Sequence record: PZ386977.1
From: a phage
Length of the DNA: 64,000 nt
Reading direction: 5' to 3' (one strand)
Made by a program: the position numbers and the translations under genes. Below are positions 3,923 to 47,121 of the stretch, in pieces. The notes beneath the pieces were generated by a model. That model was not told the origin of the DNA, did not search any database, and was given only the letters and a program-made list of their open reading frames with translations. Position 1 is the stretch's first letter. Every line of letters begins with the position of its first letter.

Positions 3923-6634
3923 TCAAAAATCGAACATATCGAACAGAGATGCTTTCTTCTCGTAATCGAGTTTCGCTGCTGATGTGAATCCTTCAAGTGG
4001 TTTAATAAATGTCTTCTCAAGGAGAACAGTGTAGTCCATCCAATGAAGTACGTCGTCTTTAATTAAATCTGTGATTTCAGTACCAGAAGGCCATGCGATA
4101 CATTTATCACCGAATGGGTTTCCTTCACGTAAAGGCAGAACATATACCTTTTCGCCTTCTACAACTTGTGGAGCATCAATATTACCTTTGATAGCCCGGT
4201 TATACGTCAGAATTCCACGAATATGGAACGGACATTTTGGACCAGGGAATCCACCTACATCATATTTAGCAATGTTATTCGCAGAAGATACCGACGCGAT
4301 GCTAATATAATTCAATTGACGGAATTCTTTTTCAAACTCTTTAAAATATTCTTGTAATGATTCTTCACCTTCTTGAAGCATACGACGAATACATTCTTTA
4401 AGAGCTTTCTGTACCGCTTTAGGAGTTGAAGATTTCTGTGTTTCGAGACCCATGATTTTGAGTTTAGGCTCAGCGTAACGAGTACCTTCCATATCCCACA
4501 CGTTTAATGCGTAACGTTTCTTACCAGTCCAGAATCCACCAATACCTTTAGAGCCAAGTGGAGGACCAGCGATAGCTTCTCGGTCCATGAACATTAAGTG
4601 TTGTTTATTGTTCATGTATTCACACATTTCACGGAAACCTCTATCAATAGCAGGTTCCATACGTTCACGAGCGAACTTATCTAAGAAGTCCACCCAATGG
4701 TTGGTATCACGGAATTTAGATTCACCAACCTTATCAATAATTTTATCAGCAGATACGTAAATAGAGTCTGTATCACCATATAGAACGAAAGCTTCACCTT
4801 CTGTACCACAAACTTCATTCAGATATTCATTAACTTTACGTTCAATCCACTGTAAAGCCATTTGCCCGAATGTTGTGATTGCAGTAGCATTACGCAAATC
4901 ATAATAACGGAACCAAACGTTGCCAAGTGCACCATAAAGTGAGTTGATAAGCAATTTACGGTTAATTTGTGCAGTCATACCTGCAACTTCAGTACGTTGA
5001 GCTCTAAACAACATTTCATTAAGAGATTTAGCAGACAACTTTTTAATCTTTTCTTTAATCTCATCGCTGAAGTCGAAACGATAATCAACATCTAACGGTT
5101 CGTCAACAGAAAGATTAGGATTATGCAATGCCTCTTTAATTATTTCACCATTACGTTGAGCTGCAAGCATGTAACCTTTATGTTCTTTACGTTGATTAAA
5201 GACCTTAGTGATTTCAGTTGGAACTACACCATCACGGTCTTTATAATACATCATGCCATTAGGAGAGCAGCTGTACACATCTGAAGGACGTTCAGCGATT
5301 GCGTTAATATAATCATGCAATGGAGCTACTTTAAACGTTCCTGCTATTGTTTCTGGGCTAATATTCACTTGGCGAATAATACTTGGATACAGAGATGTAA
5401 GGTCGAAACTCATTACATATTTGTATCGATTTGGAATAGGTTCCTTAACAAAAGCGCCAGGATAAGGTTGAACCGGGTGAGAACGACCTTGTGGAATCAC
5501 CTTGTTCTGCTCTTTAAGGCTATTAAAAATAATAGCATCCCATGTTTTAATTGGGCTGAACACAGATTGAATCTGTATCTTAGCATAATAACCCATGTCC
5601 AAACTCAAGTTGATGAACTGGCGCTTAGCATCAATTTGCAATACACGATACACGTCGATGATGTTATAAGAAATATATCGTTGGTGATTGCTTTCACGAA
5701 GCTTAGAAATAGGGCCGTCATATTTCAGTTTACCAACGTTCAATTCAAATTCTGAAATGTAATCCAGAGAATACGACGGTTGATTAGTAAAAGAGAATTT
5801 TTTGTAAAGGTCAATGTAATCAAGAACAGAGATACCGAACAATGTAATGATTTCACGAGAACCATACATGTTTTCGATAACTTTAACACGAGTTTTACGA
5901 TGTGGTGATAAACGTTTCGCAGTAGATTCACCAAAAATATTCTTGATTCTGTTATACACATATGGAATATCAAATGACTCAACGTTCCATCCAGTCAAAA
6001 TGACAGGAGTTTTCTGTTGCCAGAAGTTGAGATATTCCATCAACAATTCTTTTTCGTTATCGAACGGCATATAAATGATTTTATCGATAATTTCAGATGG
6101 AACTTCATCACCACCTTGTTCTTGAAGCTTAGCAGCGATTTCAATAGACCATTCTTCCACATTGCCGTATGGAGAATTCAATAGATCAAATACATAGAAC
6201 CTGTCGTCAATTGAGTCATAATGGGTGATAGCATCAATCGGATGTTTTGCTTGTGACGGCTCAGGGAACCCATCCGGAGATGTTACTTCGATGTCGAAGT
6301 TAGCCACACGAATTTTTGTATGGTCGTATTTGATTTCATAGTTATAAGTGTCAGACAAATACGCCAATTTGAAATCGTCCATGCCAAGTGCTTCAAGTCC
6401 GATATCTTCCATGCGTTTAATCCATTGGGAGGCATCACGCATATTAGCGAACAACTTACGAGTACACGGCTTACCGTAGATATCGAAATATTTCGTGGCC
6501 TGACTTTCTGGACAATGAGCAAACAATGATGGTTTATATTCTACTTCACGAGTACGTTCACGGCCATTAGAATCGATGTAACGTTCAAAAATTGAATCAC
6601 CAATCTGTTCAACCGTTAAGTAAAATTCTTTCAT
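3923..6634 (-). CDS. 43: DNA polymerase, family B (gp43)
   Basis: 903 aa; exo motif FDIEV; polymerase motifs SLYPS, KILINSLYG, YGDTDS, KKRY; N-terminus MKEFYLTVEQIGDSIFERYID matches my recollection of RB69 gp43. Confidence 0.97.
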   Translation of the reverse strand: MKEFYLTVEQIGDSIFERYIDSNGRERTREVEYKPSLFAHCPESQATKYFDIYGKPCTRKLFANMRDASQWIKRMEDIGLEALGMDDFKLAYLSDTYNYEIKYDHTKIRVANFDIEVTSPDGFPEPSQAKHPIDAITHYDSIDDRFYVFDLLNSPYGNVEEWSIEIAAKLQEQGGDEVPSEIIDKIIYMPFDNEKELLMEYLNFWQQKTPVILTGWNVESFDIPYVYNRIKNIFGESTAKRLSPHRKTRVKVIENMYGSREIITLFGISVLDYIDLYKKFSFTNQPSYSLDYISEFELNVGKLKYDGPISKLRESNHQRYISYNIIDVYRVLQIDAKRQFINLSLDMGYYAKIQIQSVFSPIKTWDAIIFNSLKEQNKVIPQGRSHPVQPYPGAFVKEPIPNRYKYVMSFDLTSLYPSIIRQVNISPETIAGTFKVAPLHDYINAIAERPSDVYSCSPNGMMYYKDRDGVVPTEITKVFNQRKEHKGYMLAAQRNGEIIKEALHNPNLSVDEPLDVDYRFDFSDEIKEKIKKLSAKSLNEMLFRAQRTEVAGMTAQINRKLLINSLYGALGNVWFRYYDLRNATAITTFGQMALQWIERKVNEYLNEVCGTEGEAFVLYGDTDSIYVSADKIIDKVGESKFRDTNHWVDFLDKFARERMEPAIDRGFREMCEYMNNKQHLMFMDREAIAGPPLGSKGIGGFWTGKKRYALNVWDMEGTRYAEPKLKIMGLETQKSSTPKAVQKALKECIRRMLQEGEESLQEYFKEFEKEFRQLNYISIASVSSANNIAKYDVGGFPGPKCPFHIRGILTYNRAIKGNIDAPQVVEGEKVYVLPLREGNPFGDKCIAWPSGTEITDLIKDDVLHWMDYTVLLEKTFIKPLEGFTSAAKLDYEKKASLFDMFDF

Positions 6635-41230: not shown

Positions 41231-41703
41231 TCGGTAATAAAACGTTCAACTTCATTATTCTTGGCTTTTATCTTGTCTTTACGTTCCTGTAAACTACTTT
41301 TAACAAGATTAATAATGATACCTATAGTACCTCCACCAATTATACCACCAATTATACTTACGATAGTAGATGCCAATAAGATAGCGATAATATCTGGTAT
41401 GGCAAAGGCACTTACTTTAGTACTAAAAAACCATACCGACGGTACAAATATAATCCATCCTGTTATCCATTGGCACTTATTGAAAAACTTTTCAAGCTCA
41501 GCTTGAGTTGTTCGTATTACTTCATCGATAGGTTGATATCCATTAATGTATCTGTTCACGATAATACCTGCTGGCTGGTCGATTTTAAATTCTTGGCAAA
41601 TACGTTTCACTAAGTAGGATGGACATCCTGTCCAATCCACTGAATAGTATGAAATACCTTCATTACCGTCGTCAATATTAGACCAATATGTTTTGTTAAT
41701 CAT
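41212..41703 (-). CDS. membrane protein
   Basis: 163 aa; hydrophobic WITGWIIFVPSVWFF and AILLASTIVSIIGGIIGGGTIGIIINL. Confidence 0.5.
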   Translation of the reverse strand: MINKTYWSNIDDGNEGISYYSVDWTGCPSYLVKRICQEFKIDQPAGIIVNRYINGYQPIDEVIRTTQAELEKFFNKCQWITGWIIFVPSVWFFSTKVSAFAIPDIIAILLASTIVSIIGGIIGGGTIGIIINLVKSSLQERKDKIKAKNNEVERFITECRNLR

Positions 41704-42389
41704 TACCAGCCTTCCATAGGGAATTCTAGATAAACTTGAGCGTTGACACGAATTTCATTGGTAATCTTTTTAACTCGGTCTGTATTACGAGATACACGTC
41801 CGAACCAACGCCATCCATTACTAATTGCACGAGAACCAGTGTGCCATGTTTGCCAATCAAACTGAAGAAGAGTACGGTCCGGAGCTTCCCATTTCTCTAG
41901 TTCGCCTTTTTCGATTTTTTCGAGGACTTCTTTGTGCCACTGGCGATAGATAAGTTCGCCATCAGGAATCTGACTGAACTCTGCAGTTCCTGTTGCAAAA
42001 TGAGTAGGACACACGTCAGCGTTAACAAGACCAAGAATATGTTCAGAATGGTAACGAGGGTTATCATAGTCAGGTTGTCCTGCAGTAATAAAGTGTTGGC
42101 CGACTGGAATATCAGGGCGAGGAACATCGTCATGGTGGTATCCAGGAATAGCAGGATACCAACCAGGCATAAGCATATGAACACGTGAATCGAATACTAC
42201 TTCATTAGTGTTCCAGTCATCAGGCAGATTCATGATGAAAGAACGAGTGATAGGACCGCCGTTATCAAAAGCAAACTTCAGGTCGCAGTTGAAGAACATA
42301 GGCTCATTTTTAATTTTATCATTACTGATACGGCCAGCGAAACCACCTACTGCACGAGCTTGACTATTAAACACTTTAGAACTATTCAT
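41703..42389 (-). CDS. hypothetical protein (His/Asp-rich, possible metal-dependent enzyme)
   Basis: 228 aa; GYHHDD...HSEH. Confidence 0.5.
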   Translation of the reverse strand: MNSSKVFNSQARAVGGFAGRISNDKIKNEPMFFNCDLKFAFDNGGPITRSFIMNLPDDWNTNEVVFDSRVHMLMPGWYPAIPGYHHDDVPRPDIPVGQHFITAGQPDYDNPRYHSEHILGLVNADVCPTHFATGTAEFSQIPDGELIYRQWHKEVLEKIEKGELEKWEAPDRTLLQFDWQTWHTGSRAISNGWRWFGRVSRNTDRVKKITNEIRVNAQVYLEFPMEGW

Positions 42390-42724: not shown

Positions 42725-42754
42725 ACTATAACATAGTCCTATAATTGTGTAAAC
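42725..42754 (-). promoter_or_regulatory. early promoter GTTTACA-N17-TATAGT embedded in ATAGGACT/AGTCCTAT palindrome
   Basis: minus-strand GTTTACACAATTATAGGACTATGTTATAGT. Confidence 0.55.
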
Positions 42755-42766
42755 AGTTTTGTGAAG

Positions 42767-43723
42767 TTATTTGAAAGGTTTTACCATATGGAAATTTTGT
42801 TTGAAACGTTTGACGTAATCGTCGTGTCCTAAGCTTTGATACATACTTACTACTTTACCATAGTTCTCCCAGGCATACTCACGGAACCATCCTGACGTGA
42901 TTGATGTACAGACCTTTTCAAGGGCCATCATAAAACTATCACGTGGATGGATTTTAAAGTCATTAGGAATCTGAGAACGTTCAAGAGCTAGTACACATGC
43001 TTCTTCGTATACACCGGCCAATTTGACCATTTCAGGTAATGATTCGAACTTCTCACGAGACGTCATGACTTCAGAACCATCTTTCATGTAAAATGTATAA
43101 GCCGGACGGTCTGTTAGTGCAATGGCTTCATGAATAGTATCATGGTCATATGTATAAATGTCATCTTTAAAGAACGCACTTTTAGAAGTGTCAAGAACTG
43201 GGTGAGCATAGTTCAAGGTTTCTTTCTGGCGTTTCAGCATAATTTCAGTAAGTTCATCGTTCAGTGTAACACCTTTACCACGAAGATACTGAATATGGTT
43301 CATAGTCTTTAAAAAGAATGGATTATTTTTCTTGAAACGATGAGACATCTTAATTGCAAGGCATACATCAGGAGTTGCCCAGTAAAATCCATTTAAACGG
43401 TCTTTAGACAAATTTTTCTCGGCATATTTTAAAAGGTCATAAGAAGACGTGAAATCTTCAGGAGTGAGTTCACCGACTAATTCACGGACATTAGTGATTG
43501 CCGGAACAATATATGCTTCAAAATGAGTTTCGCGTCCGTTATGGAAGCATTTGAAAACTTGGACACCAGGGTTATCTTGGTGAACATATACACCCATCAT
43601 TTGATTTTTGAATGCATTCCAAGAACATTGGTCCGCAATAAAGTCCCAATCGCTATTTTTGATAGCGCTAGAATCAATAAGACCGTGATAGTGAAGTGCA
43701 CGAGAACCAATAACTAACATCAT
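42767..43723 (-). CDS. hypothetical protein
   Basis: 318-aa ORF. Confidence 0.55.
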   Translation of the reverse strand: MMLVIGSRALHYHGLIDSSAIKNSDWDFIADQCSWNAFKNQMMGVYVHQDNPGVQVFKCFHNGRETHFEAYIVPAITNVRELVGELTPEDFTSSYDLLKYAEKNLSKDRLNGFYWATPDVCLAIKMSHRFKKNNPFFLKTMNHIQYLRGKGVTLNDELTEIMLKRQKETLNYAHPVLDTSKSAFFKDDIYTYDHDTIHEAIALTDRPAYTFYMKDGSEVMTSREKFESLPEMVKLAGVYEEACVLALERSQIPNDFKIHPRDSFMMALEKVCTSITSGWFREYAWENYGKVVSMYQSLGHDDYVKRFKQNFHMVKPFK

Positions 43724-43748
43724 AATAATTTCCTCAAATTTAGATTAC

Positions 43749-44000
43749 TTAAATTTCGCGACATGCGATATTATATTCATCCCAGAGGTCATCATGTGAA
43801 GCCTCTACCAATGGAACTATTGTACCGTTTATGTCTTCATTATAAGGGCAAATTGTACAGTGCGCATCTTCGAATCGGATGCCTTTGTGTTCAGATTTTT
43901 TATAACGCATATCGAATATCTTTGCAAACTTTTCACGACTAATAGTTTTAGCAACTACTTCAGTTCCGATACTTTCGTAATAAATCATTGTGGACTCCAT
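43749..44000 (-). CDS. hypothetical protein
   Basis: 83-aa ORF. Confidence 0.45.
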   Translation of the reverse strand: MESTMIYYESIGTEVVAKTISREKFAKIFDMRYKKSEHKGIRFEDAHCTICPYNEDINGTIVPLVEASHDDLWDEYNIACREI

Positions 44001-44016
44001 TTGTTTTGATAGGACT

Positions 44017-44046
44017 ACTATAACATAGCCCTATCTTGTTGTAAAC
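44017..44046 (-). promoter_or_regulatory. early promoter GTTTACA-N17-TATAGT in palindrome (near-copy of 42725 and 50722 cassettes)
   Basis: GATAGGACTACTATAACATAGCCCTATC element. Confidence 0.55.
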
Positions 44047-44050
44047 TGTT

Positions 44051-44248
44051 TTAGCAAGAATAACTAGATGATACCCAGCCTTGAACAGTAATACTATTAT
44101 TTGATAACGAGATTGCGTCCTGGAGATTAAGACCTGCGTTATCTTCAATCCACAATGTAACTTCTTCACGCTCTTCGGTTGCAATCTGGAACAGGTTTTC
44201 TAGGGCAGCTACTGCTGTACGTACAGCACAATCTAATTCACGAGACAT
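44051..44248 (-). CDS. small protein, WVSSS-x2-C C-terminus family
   Basis: 65 aa ending QGWVSSSYSC. Confidence 0.45.
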   Translation of the reverse strand: MSRELDCAVRTAVAALENLFQIATEEREEVTLWIEDNAGLNLQDAISLSNNSITVQGWVSSSYSC

Positions 44249-44257
44249 ATGATTTCC

Positions 44258-44530
44258 TTAACAAGTGTGAGAAGATGCAACCCAACCGCCATCTTCAAGG
44301 CTCAAGTTGTAGTCGTATTGGTAAACGTCAGCCCATTCAGCATAGCCGTTTTTTATACAACGTTCAAGATCGGCTTTAAGATGTCCTGGTGAATGATAGG
44401 TTCCACCCATGCCATAAGCTGGATACAAGTCGAATGTTGTGTTTTGTTTATTAGCAATTTCTTTGGCAGCCTCAATAGCTGCATAGATTTTTGCTACGGC
44501 TTCAGCCAGTTCGGTTTGTTCTTTAGACAT
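44258..44530 (-). CDS. small protein, WVSSS-x2-C C-terminus family
   Basis: 90 aa ending GGWVASSHTC. Confidence 0.45.
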   Translation of the reverse strand: MSKEQTELAEAVAKIYAAIEAAKEIANKQNTTFDLYPAYGMGGTYHSPGHLKADLERCIKNGYAEWADVYQYDYNLSLEDGGWVASSHTC

Positions 44531-44539
44531 AATGATTCC

Positions 44540-44845
44540 TTAGCACAACGCAGAAGACGAAACCCAAGCACCTTCAGTAATAACGTAACCATTACCTTCA
44601 CGCTTAACGTCGCCACCATTATTTTCAATTTCATTTTTCATCCACTGGGATACGATTTCACCCTTAGGATAATAAGTACGACCGCTACCATAATCACCTA
44701 CAGAAAACGATACAGCGTATTGGTCTGCGATCTTTGTTGCTTCTTCTTCGATACGTTCAGCTTGATTCAGAAGTTTATAAATTGCATCTGAAGCGGATTT
44801 GGCATCATTAAACTCTGGTACTTTAATTTCAATAATCTTACTCAT
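44540..44845 (-). CDS. small protein, WVSSS-x2-C C-terminus family
   Basis: 101 aa ending GAWVSSSALC. Confidence 0.45.
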   Translation of the reverse strand: MSKIIEIKVPEFNDAKSASDAIYKLLNQAERIEEEATKIADQYAVSFSVGDYGSGRTYYPKGEIVSQWMKNEIENNGGDVKREGNGYVITEGAWVSSSALC

Positions 44846-44943
44846 TTTCTACATTCCTTAATAAAGTTTTCGATTGTTTCATTTTCACGTTTAGCTAGGA
44901 GTTCATTATAACTAATCATTTGAGAAGCGTAAACAGCATAAAT

Positions 44944-45315
44944 TCAGTTAAGGCTTTTGCATCTTATTTCCTTAACGAATTCCATAGCTTCTTCATATTC
45001 ATACTTTTTAACAGCTTCATCATACTGAGCTTGGGCTTTTGCGCACTGAACTTTCCATTCTCTTAATCGGGCTCTGTGATGACGTCCTTGGTACCAATAT
45101 CCCATCCAGTTAATAGGCATTAATAAAAACGGTACAATAAGTGGTGCGACGAACATTAATGAAAATGCTGCATCAGACGATATAACTTCACTAGAATCTA
45201 AAACAGCTCCTATAATCATAAAGATTAAAAATGCTAAAGCTAAAATAGGGCCAAATAGTACTTCATTTGGGATTAATTTACGCTTATATTCGTATGCCCA
45301 GGGCTTAATTGGCAT
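44944..45315 (-). CDS. membrane protein (start uncertain)
   Basis: track ORF 44944..45366; trimmed to internal ATG to limit overlap with upstream gene. Confidence 0.4.
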   Translation of the reverse strand: MPIKPWAYEYKRKLIPNEVLFGPILALAFLIFMIIGAVLDSSEVISSDAAFSLMFVAPLIVPFLLMPINWMGYWYQGRHHRARLREWKVQCAKAQAQYDEAVKKYEYEEAMEFVKEIRCKSLN

Positions 45316-45922
45316 GTACAGGGTTGGCTTTGACATATTCTCTACATTCCATAATAAATTGCTCAAGGATTAAATTGTTAGTGAAATTAGGACTAGCAAC
45401 CATAGTTTCATAAAGCGCATCAATAGCACTTAAAGCATCAACTCTTTTAAGCAAAGGCTTGCCTTCATACATAGTTTCAGAATCGACGATTAACGTAAAG
45501 TAGTATTTTTTATTATCGACTAGAACTTCTGTATCGATATAAAACATATTAGACCTCAGAAGTTTATCTCTAAAACCATAATAATCTTCAGAGCGTTCGC
45601 TGATATATTCCAATTCAGTGTTTAAACAACAAACAGACCACGTAGGAGCAACGAAATCAGTGAATCTAATATCATGGTCTGCAACTAGTTTAGCAATAGC
45701 TCCGATATCATGAATCATAATACCCGGGGCTAATAAAGATTTTCGGTTATTTGCATATTCAGTTGTCTCATAAGAAGCTGACCAGTACCATTTACGTCCG
45801 GTTGCAACATATCGTAATGAATCAACTAAAGACGTAGGTGGATTTACCTTATCTCGGAACTCTTCGAACATTGAGTCAATATCATTATTTTGGTTTCGCA
45901 TGTTAACTCCTTTATTATCCAA
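45305..45922 (-). CDS. hypothetical protein
   Basis: 205-aa ORF. Confidence 0.5.
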   Translation of the reverse strand: MDNKGVNMRNQNNDIDSMFEEFRDKVNPPTSLVDSLRYVATGRKWYWSASYETTEYANNRKSLLAPGIMIHDIGAIAKLVADHDIRFTDFVAPTWSVCCLNTELEYISERSEDYYGFRDKLLRSNMFYIDTEVLVDNKKYYFTLIVDSETMYEGKPLLKRVDALSAIDALYETMVASPNFTNNLILEQFIMECREYVKANPVHAN

Positions 45923-45950
45923 AAGGAGGACCGGAGTCCTCCGTATTATT

Positions 45951-46559
45951 TTATTTCAAAGAGTTAATATATTCTTGTACATCAGCAGAAGTGGTTTCGA
46001 CACCGGCTGGAGTGCCATTGAACGTTTCAACACGAGTCAGAGTGTCTTCGATATCAACCTTAGTCAGTGCAGCGATTTCAATTACATCATCAGCCGTAGA
46101 GATACCAAGGGCATTAGCTGCTCGAGTTTCACGAATGTATTCGAGTTTGATTGCCAGATTCTGACGAGCATCGTCAAGTTCAACCACCTTACGAGCAATT
46201 TCAATTCGCATAGCGGCATAACCGTCAGCTTTTGTATTAAGTTGTTCGGCAGTTCGACGATACAGAAGACCAAGCTTAGCATGCATGGTAACATCTTGTC
46301 CTTCAGCCAGGAGCTTACGAATTTCACGTTCCTTAGAAGCGGCTTGCTTGTTCTTTTCATTAACAAGTTCGCGAATACGTTTTTCTTCATTAATGGATTT
46401 AACAGAAGCCGTTTTTAGTTCTTTGATTTGGGTAATCAACTTATCTGCAGCTGCGTTATACTGTTCTTCGACAGTCAGATTTTTAGCCATAGCAGTACCC
46501 AGTTTAGTGCGGATGAATTCAACAAGTTTCTTCAGTGTGTTCATATTATTACCTTTCAA
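45951..46559 (-). CDS. coiled-coil protein (PspA/IM30-like?; tentative)
   Basis: 202 aa, heptad-rich helical sequence. Confidence 0.45.
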
Positions 46560-46614
46560 TTGGTTGTTTATTATCCAACGAGAGCATTATACTCTGCTCT
46601 CAAGAGTTTGTAAA

Positions 46615-46842
46615 TTATTTTTTAATCAAATTGACATAAAACTTGGCGTCTTCTGGGTGCATGCCTTCGCAGTATTCTTCAACCATGAACTTCTTAACAG
46701 CTTCATAAGGACCACTCAGATTAAGCTCAGTTGTCCAGAACTTGGAATCTTGGACTGAATCGATACGAACCTCAGGGTGTCGGTTGCGAATAACTTCTTC
46801 GGTGTATTCATAATCAACTACATCAATACTAACTTTAGCCAT
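46615..46842 (-). CDS. hypothetical protein
   Basis: 75-aa ORF. Confidence 0.45.
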   Translation of the reverse strand: MAKVSIDVVDYEYTEEVIRNRHPEVRIDSVQDSKFWTTELNLSGPYEAVKKFMVEEYCEGMHPEDAKFYVNLIKK

Positions 46843-47121
46843 TTTGTTTTCCTCTTGATTTGATGTGATTACTATAACATAAACTTACTTAGATGTAAAT
46901 TATTTCTACGTCACCTTTAGCTGCTTTATAACCTTCAGCCCAAGATACAACAGAGTTTTTATCTGAGGATTCAAATTCAGGCATTGGACTTTCACCAATA
47001 TTCACACAGTATGTTTCTTCATTTTCATCGAACCAAATAATTAAAGTAGTCATTTTGTTTACTCCTCTGTAGTTGATAAGTCTATAGTATCACCATCCTT
47101 GGTGTTTGTACATCATTATTT

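Follow-up and report, generated by a model that had tools for sequence, protein, structure and literature searches.

The locus and its three small genes

The 64-kb window, i.e., the whole stretch of DNA that was analyzed, belongs by its sequence to a T4-type phage of the genus Mosigvirus (RB69/p000v-like). Over bases 43000–46000, it shares 97.5% identity with Escherichia phage p000v and about 97% with RB69-like phages. On the minus strand of this region lie three tandem genes for small proteins, here referred to as P1, P2 and P3. P1 (type C, corresponding to RB69 ORF136c) spans 44051..44248 and encodes 65 aa ending in TVQGWVSSSYSC; P2 (type B, RB69 ORF137c) spans 44258..44530 and encodes 90 aa ending in EDGGWVASSHTC; P3 (type A, RB69 ORF139c plus ORF138c) spans 44540..44845 and encodes 101 aa ending in TEGAWVSSSALC. 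The original prediction of three tandem ORFs with the C-termini QGWVSSSYSC (P1), GGWVASSHTC (P2) and GAWVSSSALC (P3) agrees with the ORF list to the base. In the RB69 record, the counterpart of P3 is broken by a frameshift into ORF138c and ORF139c, while p000v carries all three genes as annotated CDSs. The genes are spaced by gaps of 9 nt, and in each case the TAA stop overlaps an AAGGA Shine–Dalgarno sequence.

On the T4 map, the locus lies between e.2 and e.4. T4 itself has neither a gene of this family nor the nucleotidyltransferase gene described below, and its e.2 is directly followed by e.3. In the window, the neighbors are nudE, e and the tRNA region. A sigma-70/T4-early-type promoter-like site (TTTACG-17-TATAAT, minus strand, 44905..44933), found as a pattern match in a consensus scan with 10/12 matching positions, is located directly upstream of P3 and is the likely start of a three-gene transcription unit. 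A second early-type promoter-like site, again a pattern match (TTTACA-17-TG-TATAGT, minus strand, 44017..44045), is placed between P1 and a small gene resembling RB69 ORF135c (minus strand, 43749..44000), identified as an ORF of 83 aa with a match to PHROG 3723. This ORF135c-like gene is not a member of the tail family, and homologs of it were present in only 4/11 of the first loci examined. It separates the array from the gene for an ORF134c-like protein of 318 aa (minus strand, 42767..43723; RB69 ORF134c), which carries the Pfam domains DUF7277 and DUF7275 and starts about 0.3 kb downstream of P1. This protein is a nucleotidyltransferase (NTase) by the evidence given below.

P3 consists of an N-terminal helix, a GDYGSGRTYYP loop, a small beta-sheet and the tail AWVSSSALC. 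P2 has a similar order of helix, AYGMGGTYHSPG loop and tail (GWVASSHTC). P1 begins with MSRELDCAxRTA, an N-terminus that is invariant, ends in the tail GWVSSSYSC and lacks the YGxGG loop. The AF2 model of P3 (pLDDT 90.7) predicts a confident fold that has no known relative. In this model, the tail is partly within the fold, with some of the motif forming a strand.

Homology between P2 and P3 extends over about 72 residues (BLASTP, E = 6e-6), so the earlier claim that the three proteins share nothing but a C-terminal motif does not hold for this pair. It does hold for P1. When profiles built from 24 P1-type and 49 P2/P3-type sequences were compared with hhalign, only the last 14 columns aligned (E = 2.6e-6, probability 88.6%). 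Because P1 has just these last 14 positions in common with P2 and P3, the tail appears to be a portable module, and instead of being a simple duplicate, P1 may combine a different body with the same tail. Searches of P1, P2 and P3 against Pfam, NCBIfam, PADLOC and PDB sequences gave no significant match; weak matches to Peptidase_S78_2 and E217_Gp32 fell under the curated cut-offs and were rejected. P3 and P2 match PHROG 899 (E = 1.8e-22 and 2.7e-18, respectively), and P1 matches PHROG 4882 (E = 1.1e-36). Both PHROGs are unannotated. They divide what is one family when defined by its tail, and neither the motif nor the linkage to the NTase gene is recorded there.

Conservation of the tail motif

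By ORF and alignment, the tail runs from W94 to C101 in P3 (WVSSSALC, 44543..44566), from W83 to C90 in P2 (WVASSHTC, 44261..44284) and from W58 to C65 in P1 (WVSSSYSC, 44054..44077), all on the minus strand. It was searched for with the pattern W..[ST][ST].{0,3}C.{0,1}$. In the window, this pattern is matched by P1, P2 and P3 and by no other ORF. In 30 related loci, it occurs in 83 of 2,199 same-strand ORFs and in none of 3,095 opposite-strand ORFs. The W, both S and the C are invariant in an alignment of 20 sequences with a mean identity of about 30%. In two sets of database homologs, W(-8), S(-5), S(-4) and C(-1) were found in 96/107 and 126/140 sequences, the exceptions being truncated or frameshifted sequences, S-to-T variants and proteins with one extra terminal residue (e.g., ‘...ECN’). 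The test that had been set beforehand for the motif, its conservation in homologs, thus came out in its favor, and the similarity is not due to chance.

The overlap of the stop codon with the Shine–Dalgarno sequence of the next gene could have meant that the shared tail is a coincidence or a signal at the DNA level, such as the RBS or promoter of the following gene. This explanation is refuted. In 66 distinct tails, the serines at -5 and -4 are encoded by all six Ser codons (TCN as well as AGY), the cysteine is encoded by TGT as well as TGC, and each of the three stop codons is found, while the motif recurs in hundreds of divergent homologs against the background of 0/3,095 ORFs. Since all six Ser codons occur, selection acts on the peptide. 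As to the role of the terminal cysteine, 28 of 96 members of the family have a single Cys, which makes a conserved intramolecular disulfide unlikely for the family as a whole. In 14 of 247 proteins, the tail unit is present in two to three copies in an acidic linker. Judged from these sequences, the tail behaves as a module that is able to sit on different bodies.

A widespread phage family

Members of the tail family are defined here as acidic phage proteins of about 65–175 aa that end in W..[ST][ST].{0,3}C followed by at most one further residue, a definition that includes P1, P2 and P3. The family consensus comprises an N-terminal amphipathic helix ending in ‘..h-A-D-x-x-G-h-x-F’, a ‘YGMGGTYYP’ loop, an acidic variable segment and the end G-W-h-S-S-S-x-x-C; the median pI is 4.5. 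Besides types A to C, there is a type D with the end GFW[YF]SSSM..C, and a type E in which the unit is present twice, as an internal DW-x-S-S-C-YGEG and as a terminal W-x-x-S-S-C that has no spacer before the C.

By tblastn, relatives of P3 were found in 390 phage records and relatives of P1 in 252. A word-seeded search with the single P3 sequence found 6 proteins only, so a profile is required to reach the wider family. Searching a collection of 5.8 billion proteins with the family profile retrieved 106 proteins, none of them named, and when 1.84 billion cluster representatives were searched exhaustively with HMMER, 762 clusters (at 50% identity) had E <= 1e-3, and 124 of these had E <= 1e-10. 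The end of the HMMER profile nearly always coincided with the final residue of the protein. The copy number in relatives, which had been proposed as a check, ranges from one to five per phage, with three in the window phage and none in T4. These numbers bear out the earlier idea of a tandemly expanded family, with the reservation that P1 shares just the tail and is perhaps not a simple duplicate. There is no Pfam family for the small proteins and no solved structure of a relative, and literature searches by ORF names, DUF/PHROG accessions and descriptive terms returned nothing on the tail family, with neither the ORFs nor the DUFs or PHROGs being mentioned by any paper of the library that was searched.

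A scan of 185,579 species genomes of bacteria and archaea, seeded with a pattern and able to reach close relatives only, gave just five loci, all on MAG contigs and most of them with tail-family members. The pair of small protein and NTase is therefore restricted to phages in the data examined.

The neighboring nucleotidyltransferase

At 90% identity, the NTase family falls into more than 2,200 clusters. Across 48 diverse sequences, G6, S7, D25, D27 and E69 are invariant, and the same is true for K125, H128, H194, D195, H198, E240, E241, E248 and R249. By its sequence pattern, the first group of residues is the Pol-beta nucleotidyltransferase signature. The AF2 model of the protein (pLDDT 92.8) has a predicted Pol-beta fold with a MenT/AbiEii-like structure. 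Its best PDB neighbor is MenT1 (score 10.0), and ANT(2'') (8.6), TglT/MenT3 (8.6) and MenT4 (7.9) were also found, as were other small NTases, with LnuA among the matches. Because the GS...DxD...E residues are invariant and MenT toxins are the top structural matches, it is credible that the protein is active as an enzyme.

A Pfam scan at E <= 1 detected DUF7275 and DUF7277 and nothing else, DUF7275 being the conserved C-terminal helical domain of the NTase itself, and a PADLOC search gave no match. Two other identities were considered and rejected. An HD domain is ruled out, since the PDB structural neighbors include no HD-domain protein. RlaP was suggested by the RNA-ligase context, and no PF10127 match was obtained at E <= 1. 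This context is found in jumbo phages and several metagenomic contigs, where the NTase gene has genes for RNA ligase and polynucleotide kinase nearby. RNA ligase and/or Pnk genes occur within about 5–8 kb in Hallingskeid, Munch, DSS3_VP1, BillNye, CC2, L052 and L056, but not around the NTase gene of the window, where nudE, e and the tRNA region are the neighbors.

Linkage of the small proteins to the NTase gene

Tail-family members are situated upstream of the NTase gene in every one of the T4-like loci that were examined first, and the NTase gene is found about 0.3–1.3 kb downstream. Within the Straboviridae, the pair is present in phages of Escherichia, Klebsiella, Enterobacter, Edwardsiella, Yersinia, Aeromonas and Acinetobacter. 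In the Aeromonas phages, it has been relocated next to nrdD. The pair is also present in phAPEC8, in Pseudomonas Otagovirus, in Stenotrophomonas Menderavirus and in the jumbo phage Munch, i.e., in unrelated lineages in which the remaining neighbor genes differ. Among phages that are not T4-like, there are three copies upstream of the NTase gene in phAPEC8 (Stephanstirmvirinae), two in Acinetobacter phage Lazarus, four in Pseudomonas phage phiPsa267 and one in Salmonella phage Munch, whereas the two copies in Stenotrophomonas phage Mendera are located downstream.

The association was also found when starting from either partner. Thirty IMG/VR loci were retrieved with the 318-aa NTase as the only query. 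In 29 of them, one or more tail-motif ORFs lie no more than 5 kb upstream on the same strand, with CC31 as the sole exception. In the reverse look-up, four divergent metagenomic members of the small-protein family (P0064, P0062, P0074 and P0085) were taken, and all of them lie 5–730 nt upstream of a DUF7275(/DUF7277) gene. The linkage between the tail family and the NTase is thus near-obligatory in both directions. No recognizable partner was present for the remote or partial NTase homologs of DSS3_VP1, BillNye, ClubL and KVP40. The small proteins probably work together with the NTase. This linkage, the most informative feature of the locus, had not been mentioned in the original prediction.

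Comparison with known systems

The closest known kind of system is MenAT1 of Mycobacterium tuberculosis, which consists of the 68-aa MenA1 and the NTase MenT1, together with the wider MenAT/AbiE (DUF1814) group. MenT/AbiEii toxins add nucleotides to tRNA acceptor ends, and their antitoxins are diverse and encoded upstream (PMC10435456, PMC11375011). Their signature consists of motifs I and II, which form the Pol-beta metal site, motif III, which is tRNA-NTase-like, and motif IV, which is DUF1814-specific (PMC10435456). MenA1, with 68 aa, exerts its effect via the N-terminal helix; it obstructs the active site and brings about auto-phosphorylation of the Thr/Ser in motif I (PMC10435456, PMC11375011). 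In the phage NTase, the MenT-type fold is predicted by the model, G6-S7...D25-x-D27 and E69 are the equivalents of motifs I and II, and K125/R129 and D193/D195 are candidates for motifs III and IV. The gene order is MenAT-like as well, as the partner gene is immediately upstream in the same orientation in the 29/30 IMG/VR loci and the 4/4 reverse look-ups, with Mendera having it downstream.

There are also clear differences from MenAT/AbiE. The phage NTase has no DUF1814/AbiEii sequence match (Pfam, E <= 1), and the pair resides in virulent phages instead of bacterial chromosomes, where the scan of 185,579 species genomes gave the five MAG contigs. Moreover, one phage enzyme is accompanied by one to five paralogs. 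These carry the W..SS..C C-terminal tag, which MenA1 and AbiEi lack, show no sequence or fold likeness to either protein and are not members of the MenA/AbiEi families (COG5340 or MenA1-like). What is new compared to MenAT/AbiE is therefore the combination of lytic phages, multi-copy arrays, a Cys-terminal tag, a predicted partner fold that is unrelated, and an enzyme outside DUF1814.

Other systems are more distant. Like RlaP (PF10127), the phage enzyme is a Pol-beta-type NTase that in some phages has genes for RNA ligase and polynucleotide kinase nearby; unlike RlaP, it does not match PF10127 at E <= 1. In excerpts of the RlaP literature, the enzyme adds one to two NMPs to damaged RNA 3′ ends, the genomic context of such NTases is likewise RNA ligase/polynucleotide kinase, and a small Cys-tailed partner is not described (PMC12776372, PMC7824862). 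With type VII toxin-antitoxin systems (MNT-HEPN AMPylation; TakA/TglT phosphorylation), there is an analogy only, in that an NTase-fold enzyme adjoins the gene of a small partner, and the phage pair differs by having no HEPN domain. MNT-HEPN is controlled by AMPylation of a hydroxyl residue. In TakA/TglT, control is exerted through covalent phosphorylation of a hydroxyl residue (PMC11375011). The small proteins have neither the beta-grasp with C-terminal Gly-Gly nor the DsrC fold with a Cys on its C-terminal arm that characterize sulfur carriers. Likewise, dehydratase, cyclase and HFCD decarboxylase genes and a leader-core peptide, as in lanthipeptide/AviCys systems, were not found in the scanned neighborhoods.

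Possible modes of action

The reading that we prefer, with a probability of roughly 40%, is that the small proteins control the NTase by binding to it, either as a pseudo-substrate block or by targeting the enzyme. By analogy with the 68-aa MenA1 acting on MenT1, each small protein would bind the NTase via its N-terminal amphipathic helix and/or the Ser-Ser...Cys tail, and once bound would govern nucleotide transfer by plugging the active site as a pseudo-substrate. Alternatively, the bound protein might steer the NTase to certain ends of RNA or tRNA. Differences in specificity or timing would come from the variable bodies of the one to five paralogs. What we infer in this model is that the proteins interact physically, which way the regulation goes and how the tail works chemically.

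Several observations are in favor of such a partner role: the linkage seen from both directions, its recurrence across unrelated lineages, the credible NTase and the MenA1 precedent. To these can be added the tail, which is common to bodies that cannot otherwise be aligned, is repeated inside some members and is kept at the level of the peptide with all six Ser codons in use, and the early-type promoter-like sites before the array. Other observations are against a simple antitoxin, namely the presence of several paralogs per enzyme, the occurrence of the enzyme without partners in remote lineages, and the fact that the motif is partly a strand of the predicted fold.

The same enzyme could also act on the small proteins. 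In this alternative, they would be substrates of the NTase, which would put a nucleotide or phosphate on the Ser hydroxyl or Cys thiol of the tag, giving modified effector or carrier proteins, and one enzyme would have the several paralogs as its substrates, as in multi-precursor RiPP clusters and type VII MNT-HEPN. The pairing of a single conserved enzyme with one to five small proteins that have diverged except for the tag fits with this, and so does the repetition of the tag two to three times in the acidic linkers of some members, which is what one would expect if the tag were modified. The two invariant serines provide hydroxyl groups of the type that Pol-beta-fold NTases use as acceptors, the structural matches include ANT(2'') and LnuA, and the NTase is found without the family in remote lineages, while the family was never seen without the NTase. 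On the other hand, the tag is partly within the fold in the AF2 model, and the nearest structural relatives, MenT1, MenT3 and MenT4, target tRNA 3′ ends instead of proteins (PMC10435456, PMC11375011). Taken together, we consider a substrate role rather improbable. A slightly less probable option is that the small proteins act independently of the enzyme as early host-takeover or anti-defense proteins, e.g., inhibitors of host tRNA-targeting toxins or nucleases, with a tail that binds a host target or a metal, and merely have their genomic island in common with the NTase. Their acidity (median pI 4.5), their position behind early-type promoter-like sites in the hyperplastic e.2–e.4 region by the tRNA cluster, and paralog diversification compatible with an arms race would suit this role, and genes that are typical of counter-defense islands, i.e., those for RNA ligase, polynucleotide kinase, Sir2, Nampt and ART, are frequent in the neighborhoods. 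However, linkage to the NTase, gene order and strand are kept across lineages whose other neighbors all differ, and since the linkage persists there, residence in a common island is hard to accept as the sole explanation.

Two further alternatives concern the chemistry of the tail. It could be a redox, metal or sulfur-carrier site, in which the terminal Cys on a short arm forms a persulfide or a metal bridge in an oligomer, comparable to the arms of DsrC/TusE, and may feed the modification of tRNA or other nucleic acids. The strictly terminal or near-terminal position of the Cys, the tRNA and RNA-repair context and the additional Cys-containing repeats in some members are compatible with this, but there is no fold likeness to DsrC/TusE or ThiS/MoaD, the scanned neighbors do not include a PP-loop ATPase, cysteine desulfurase or rhodanese, and only one Cys is conserved, which leaves the idea with a small probability. 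The small proteins might also be RiPP-like precursors, in which Ser(-4) and the C-terminal Cys would give a lanthionine/aminovinyl-cysteine-type ring after Ser activation and Cys decarboxylation. The S-x-x-C-COOH spacing is that of the AviCys-forming end of epidermin-type peptides, and several ‘precursors’ adjoin one enzyme. Against this, LanB, LanM, LanKC and HFCD/LanD-type enzymes were not found in the scanned neighborhood, the proteins are predicted to be confidently folded domains of 65–100 aa instead of leader-core peptides, and the S-S-C end of type E, which has no spacer, breaks the ring geometry. A precursor function is accordingly very improbable.

In a more far-reaching version, the W-x-x-S-S...Cys tail would be a tag recognized by the enzyme, and a MenT-like phage NTase would act on protein tails and not only on tRNA 3′ ends, either by nucleotidylylating the Ser or Cys of tagged effectors, or by being plugged by a tail that mimics tRNA-CCA. 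As a mimic of the CCA end, the Trp could represent a stacked base and the Ser hydroxyl a ribose hydroxyl, whereas the Cys thiolate and carboxylate could chelate the catalytic metals. We regard this version as doubtful. If true, it would constitute a protein-tag/NTase system that was not known before and that many virulent phages employ in early infection. It is equally doubtful that the relationship between tag and NTase is categorically new.

Occurrence and relevance of the module

These data point to an enzyme-plus-partner module in phages that has hitherto been uncharacterized. MenT/AbiEii enzymes are known from bacteria as toxins and as effectors of abortive infection, which disable tRNA. 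The presence in lytic phages of a structurally related enzyme with its own set of tagged small proteins, often close to genes for RNA repair, would be relevant to the question of how the tRNA pool is manipulated or protected by phages, and the invariant C-terminal Cys tag offers a testable handle. The module is common, with its 762 small-protein clusters (50% identity) and more than 2,200 enzyme clusters (90% identity), and it is present in genera of therapy and model phages, including Mosigvirus, Dhakavirus, Karamvirus, Phapecoctavirus and the Acinetobacter and Pseudomonas myoviruses.

Genes Accompanying the Nucleotidyltransferase

Among the neighbors of the NTase, the MenT-like nucleotidyltransferase encoded downstream of the array, is an ORF132c-like protein of 228 aa belonging to PHROG 1843 (window 41703–42389, minus strand), for which no match was found in Pfam or the PDB. 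This protein is 82% identical between the coliphage of the window and Aeromonas phage CC2, compared to only 46% for the adjoining NTase, and such conservation is unusually strong for a gene of an accessory region. The NTase is accompanied by the ORF132c-like gene in six of the 10 loci first examined, T4 being left out of this count.

In jumbo phages and in several metagenomic contigs, the pair of small protein and NTase is located within a few kb of genes for a T4-type RNA ligase 1 and a polynucleotide kinase-phosphatase (L010 1176–4207, L046 1–5630, L056 341–9893, L052 424–5910, L047 and L048). Genes encoding Nampt, Sir2 or ART are sometimes close by as well. The surroundings of the pair in these loci constitute an RNA-repair or counter-defense neighborhood.

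The ‘Type E’ Subfamily

Some members of the small-protein family, which we refer to as ‘type E’ (approximately 72–77 aa), contain the tail motif twice, i.e., as an internal DW-x-S-S-C-YGEG and as a terminal W-x-x-S-S-C. They were located in six related loci (L004 ~4995–5234, L006 4294–4527, L007 4576–4806, L008 4250–4477, L009 4287–4505, and L012 3413–3631), and the gene usually lies between the NTase and the other family members. The phage of the window has no ‘type E’ member. In Enterobacter phage CC31 (L027 4300–4998), the NTase is present and an intact ORF with the tail motif is absent. Upstream of this NTase, a fragment of 45 codons, delimited by stop codons, ends in RYTSSC and is possibly left over from a ‘type E’ gene that has decayed.

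The Upstream Edge of the Array

P3, the 101-aa protein encoded by the first gene of the array, is a single intact ORF in the window (44540–44845) as well as in approximately 130 other Mosigviruses. In the RB69 record NC_004928, a frameshift in its orthologue (L003 4001–4307) leaves two ORFs, ORF139c of 71 aa and ORF138c of 33 aa, with WVSSPALC as the tail. Either an error in sequencing or genuine pseudogenization in RB69 may account for this split. RB69 additionally has an e.3 gene (120 aa; L003 3645–4004), flanked by e.4 and the orthologue of P3. Neither phage p000v nor the window possesses e.3, and both instead have only a 98-nt spacer (window 44846–44943) with a promoter-like site. Many relatives carry approximately 240 additional bases at this position, and their alignments fall into two pieces. 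The difference is an insertion/deletion polymorphism at the array edge.

Next to the spacer is an e.4-like ORF (44944–45366, minus strand), taken from its first possible start, a TTG. From this candidate start, the ORF shares 62 nt with the 3′ end of the e.5-like gene (45305–45922, minus strand). In p000v, e.4 is annotated from a start further downstream (393 nt), and the start in the window is putative. Between the e.5-like and e.6-like genes, a GC-rich hairpin with a perfect 7-bp stem, GGAGGAC-CGGA-GTCCTCC (45925–45942), has a terminator-like score on both strands.

Promoter-Like Sites

Pattern matching located five minus-strand sites of the form TTTAC(A/G)-17-TATA(A/G)T, which resemble T4 early promoters (44905–44933, 44017–44045, 42725–42753, 46586–46614, and 46871–46899). 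Every one of them sits in an intergenic gap of the minus-strand gene run, and the series suggests several short early transcription units. The same strand encodes a clear 75-aa Frd.3 homologue (46615–46842; Pfam Phage_FRD3, E = 1.3e-38), which is found among the e.x genes in the window, whereas in T4 it lies near frd.
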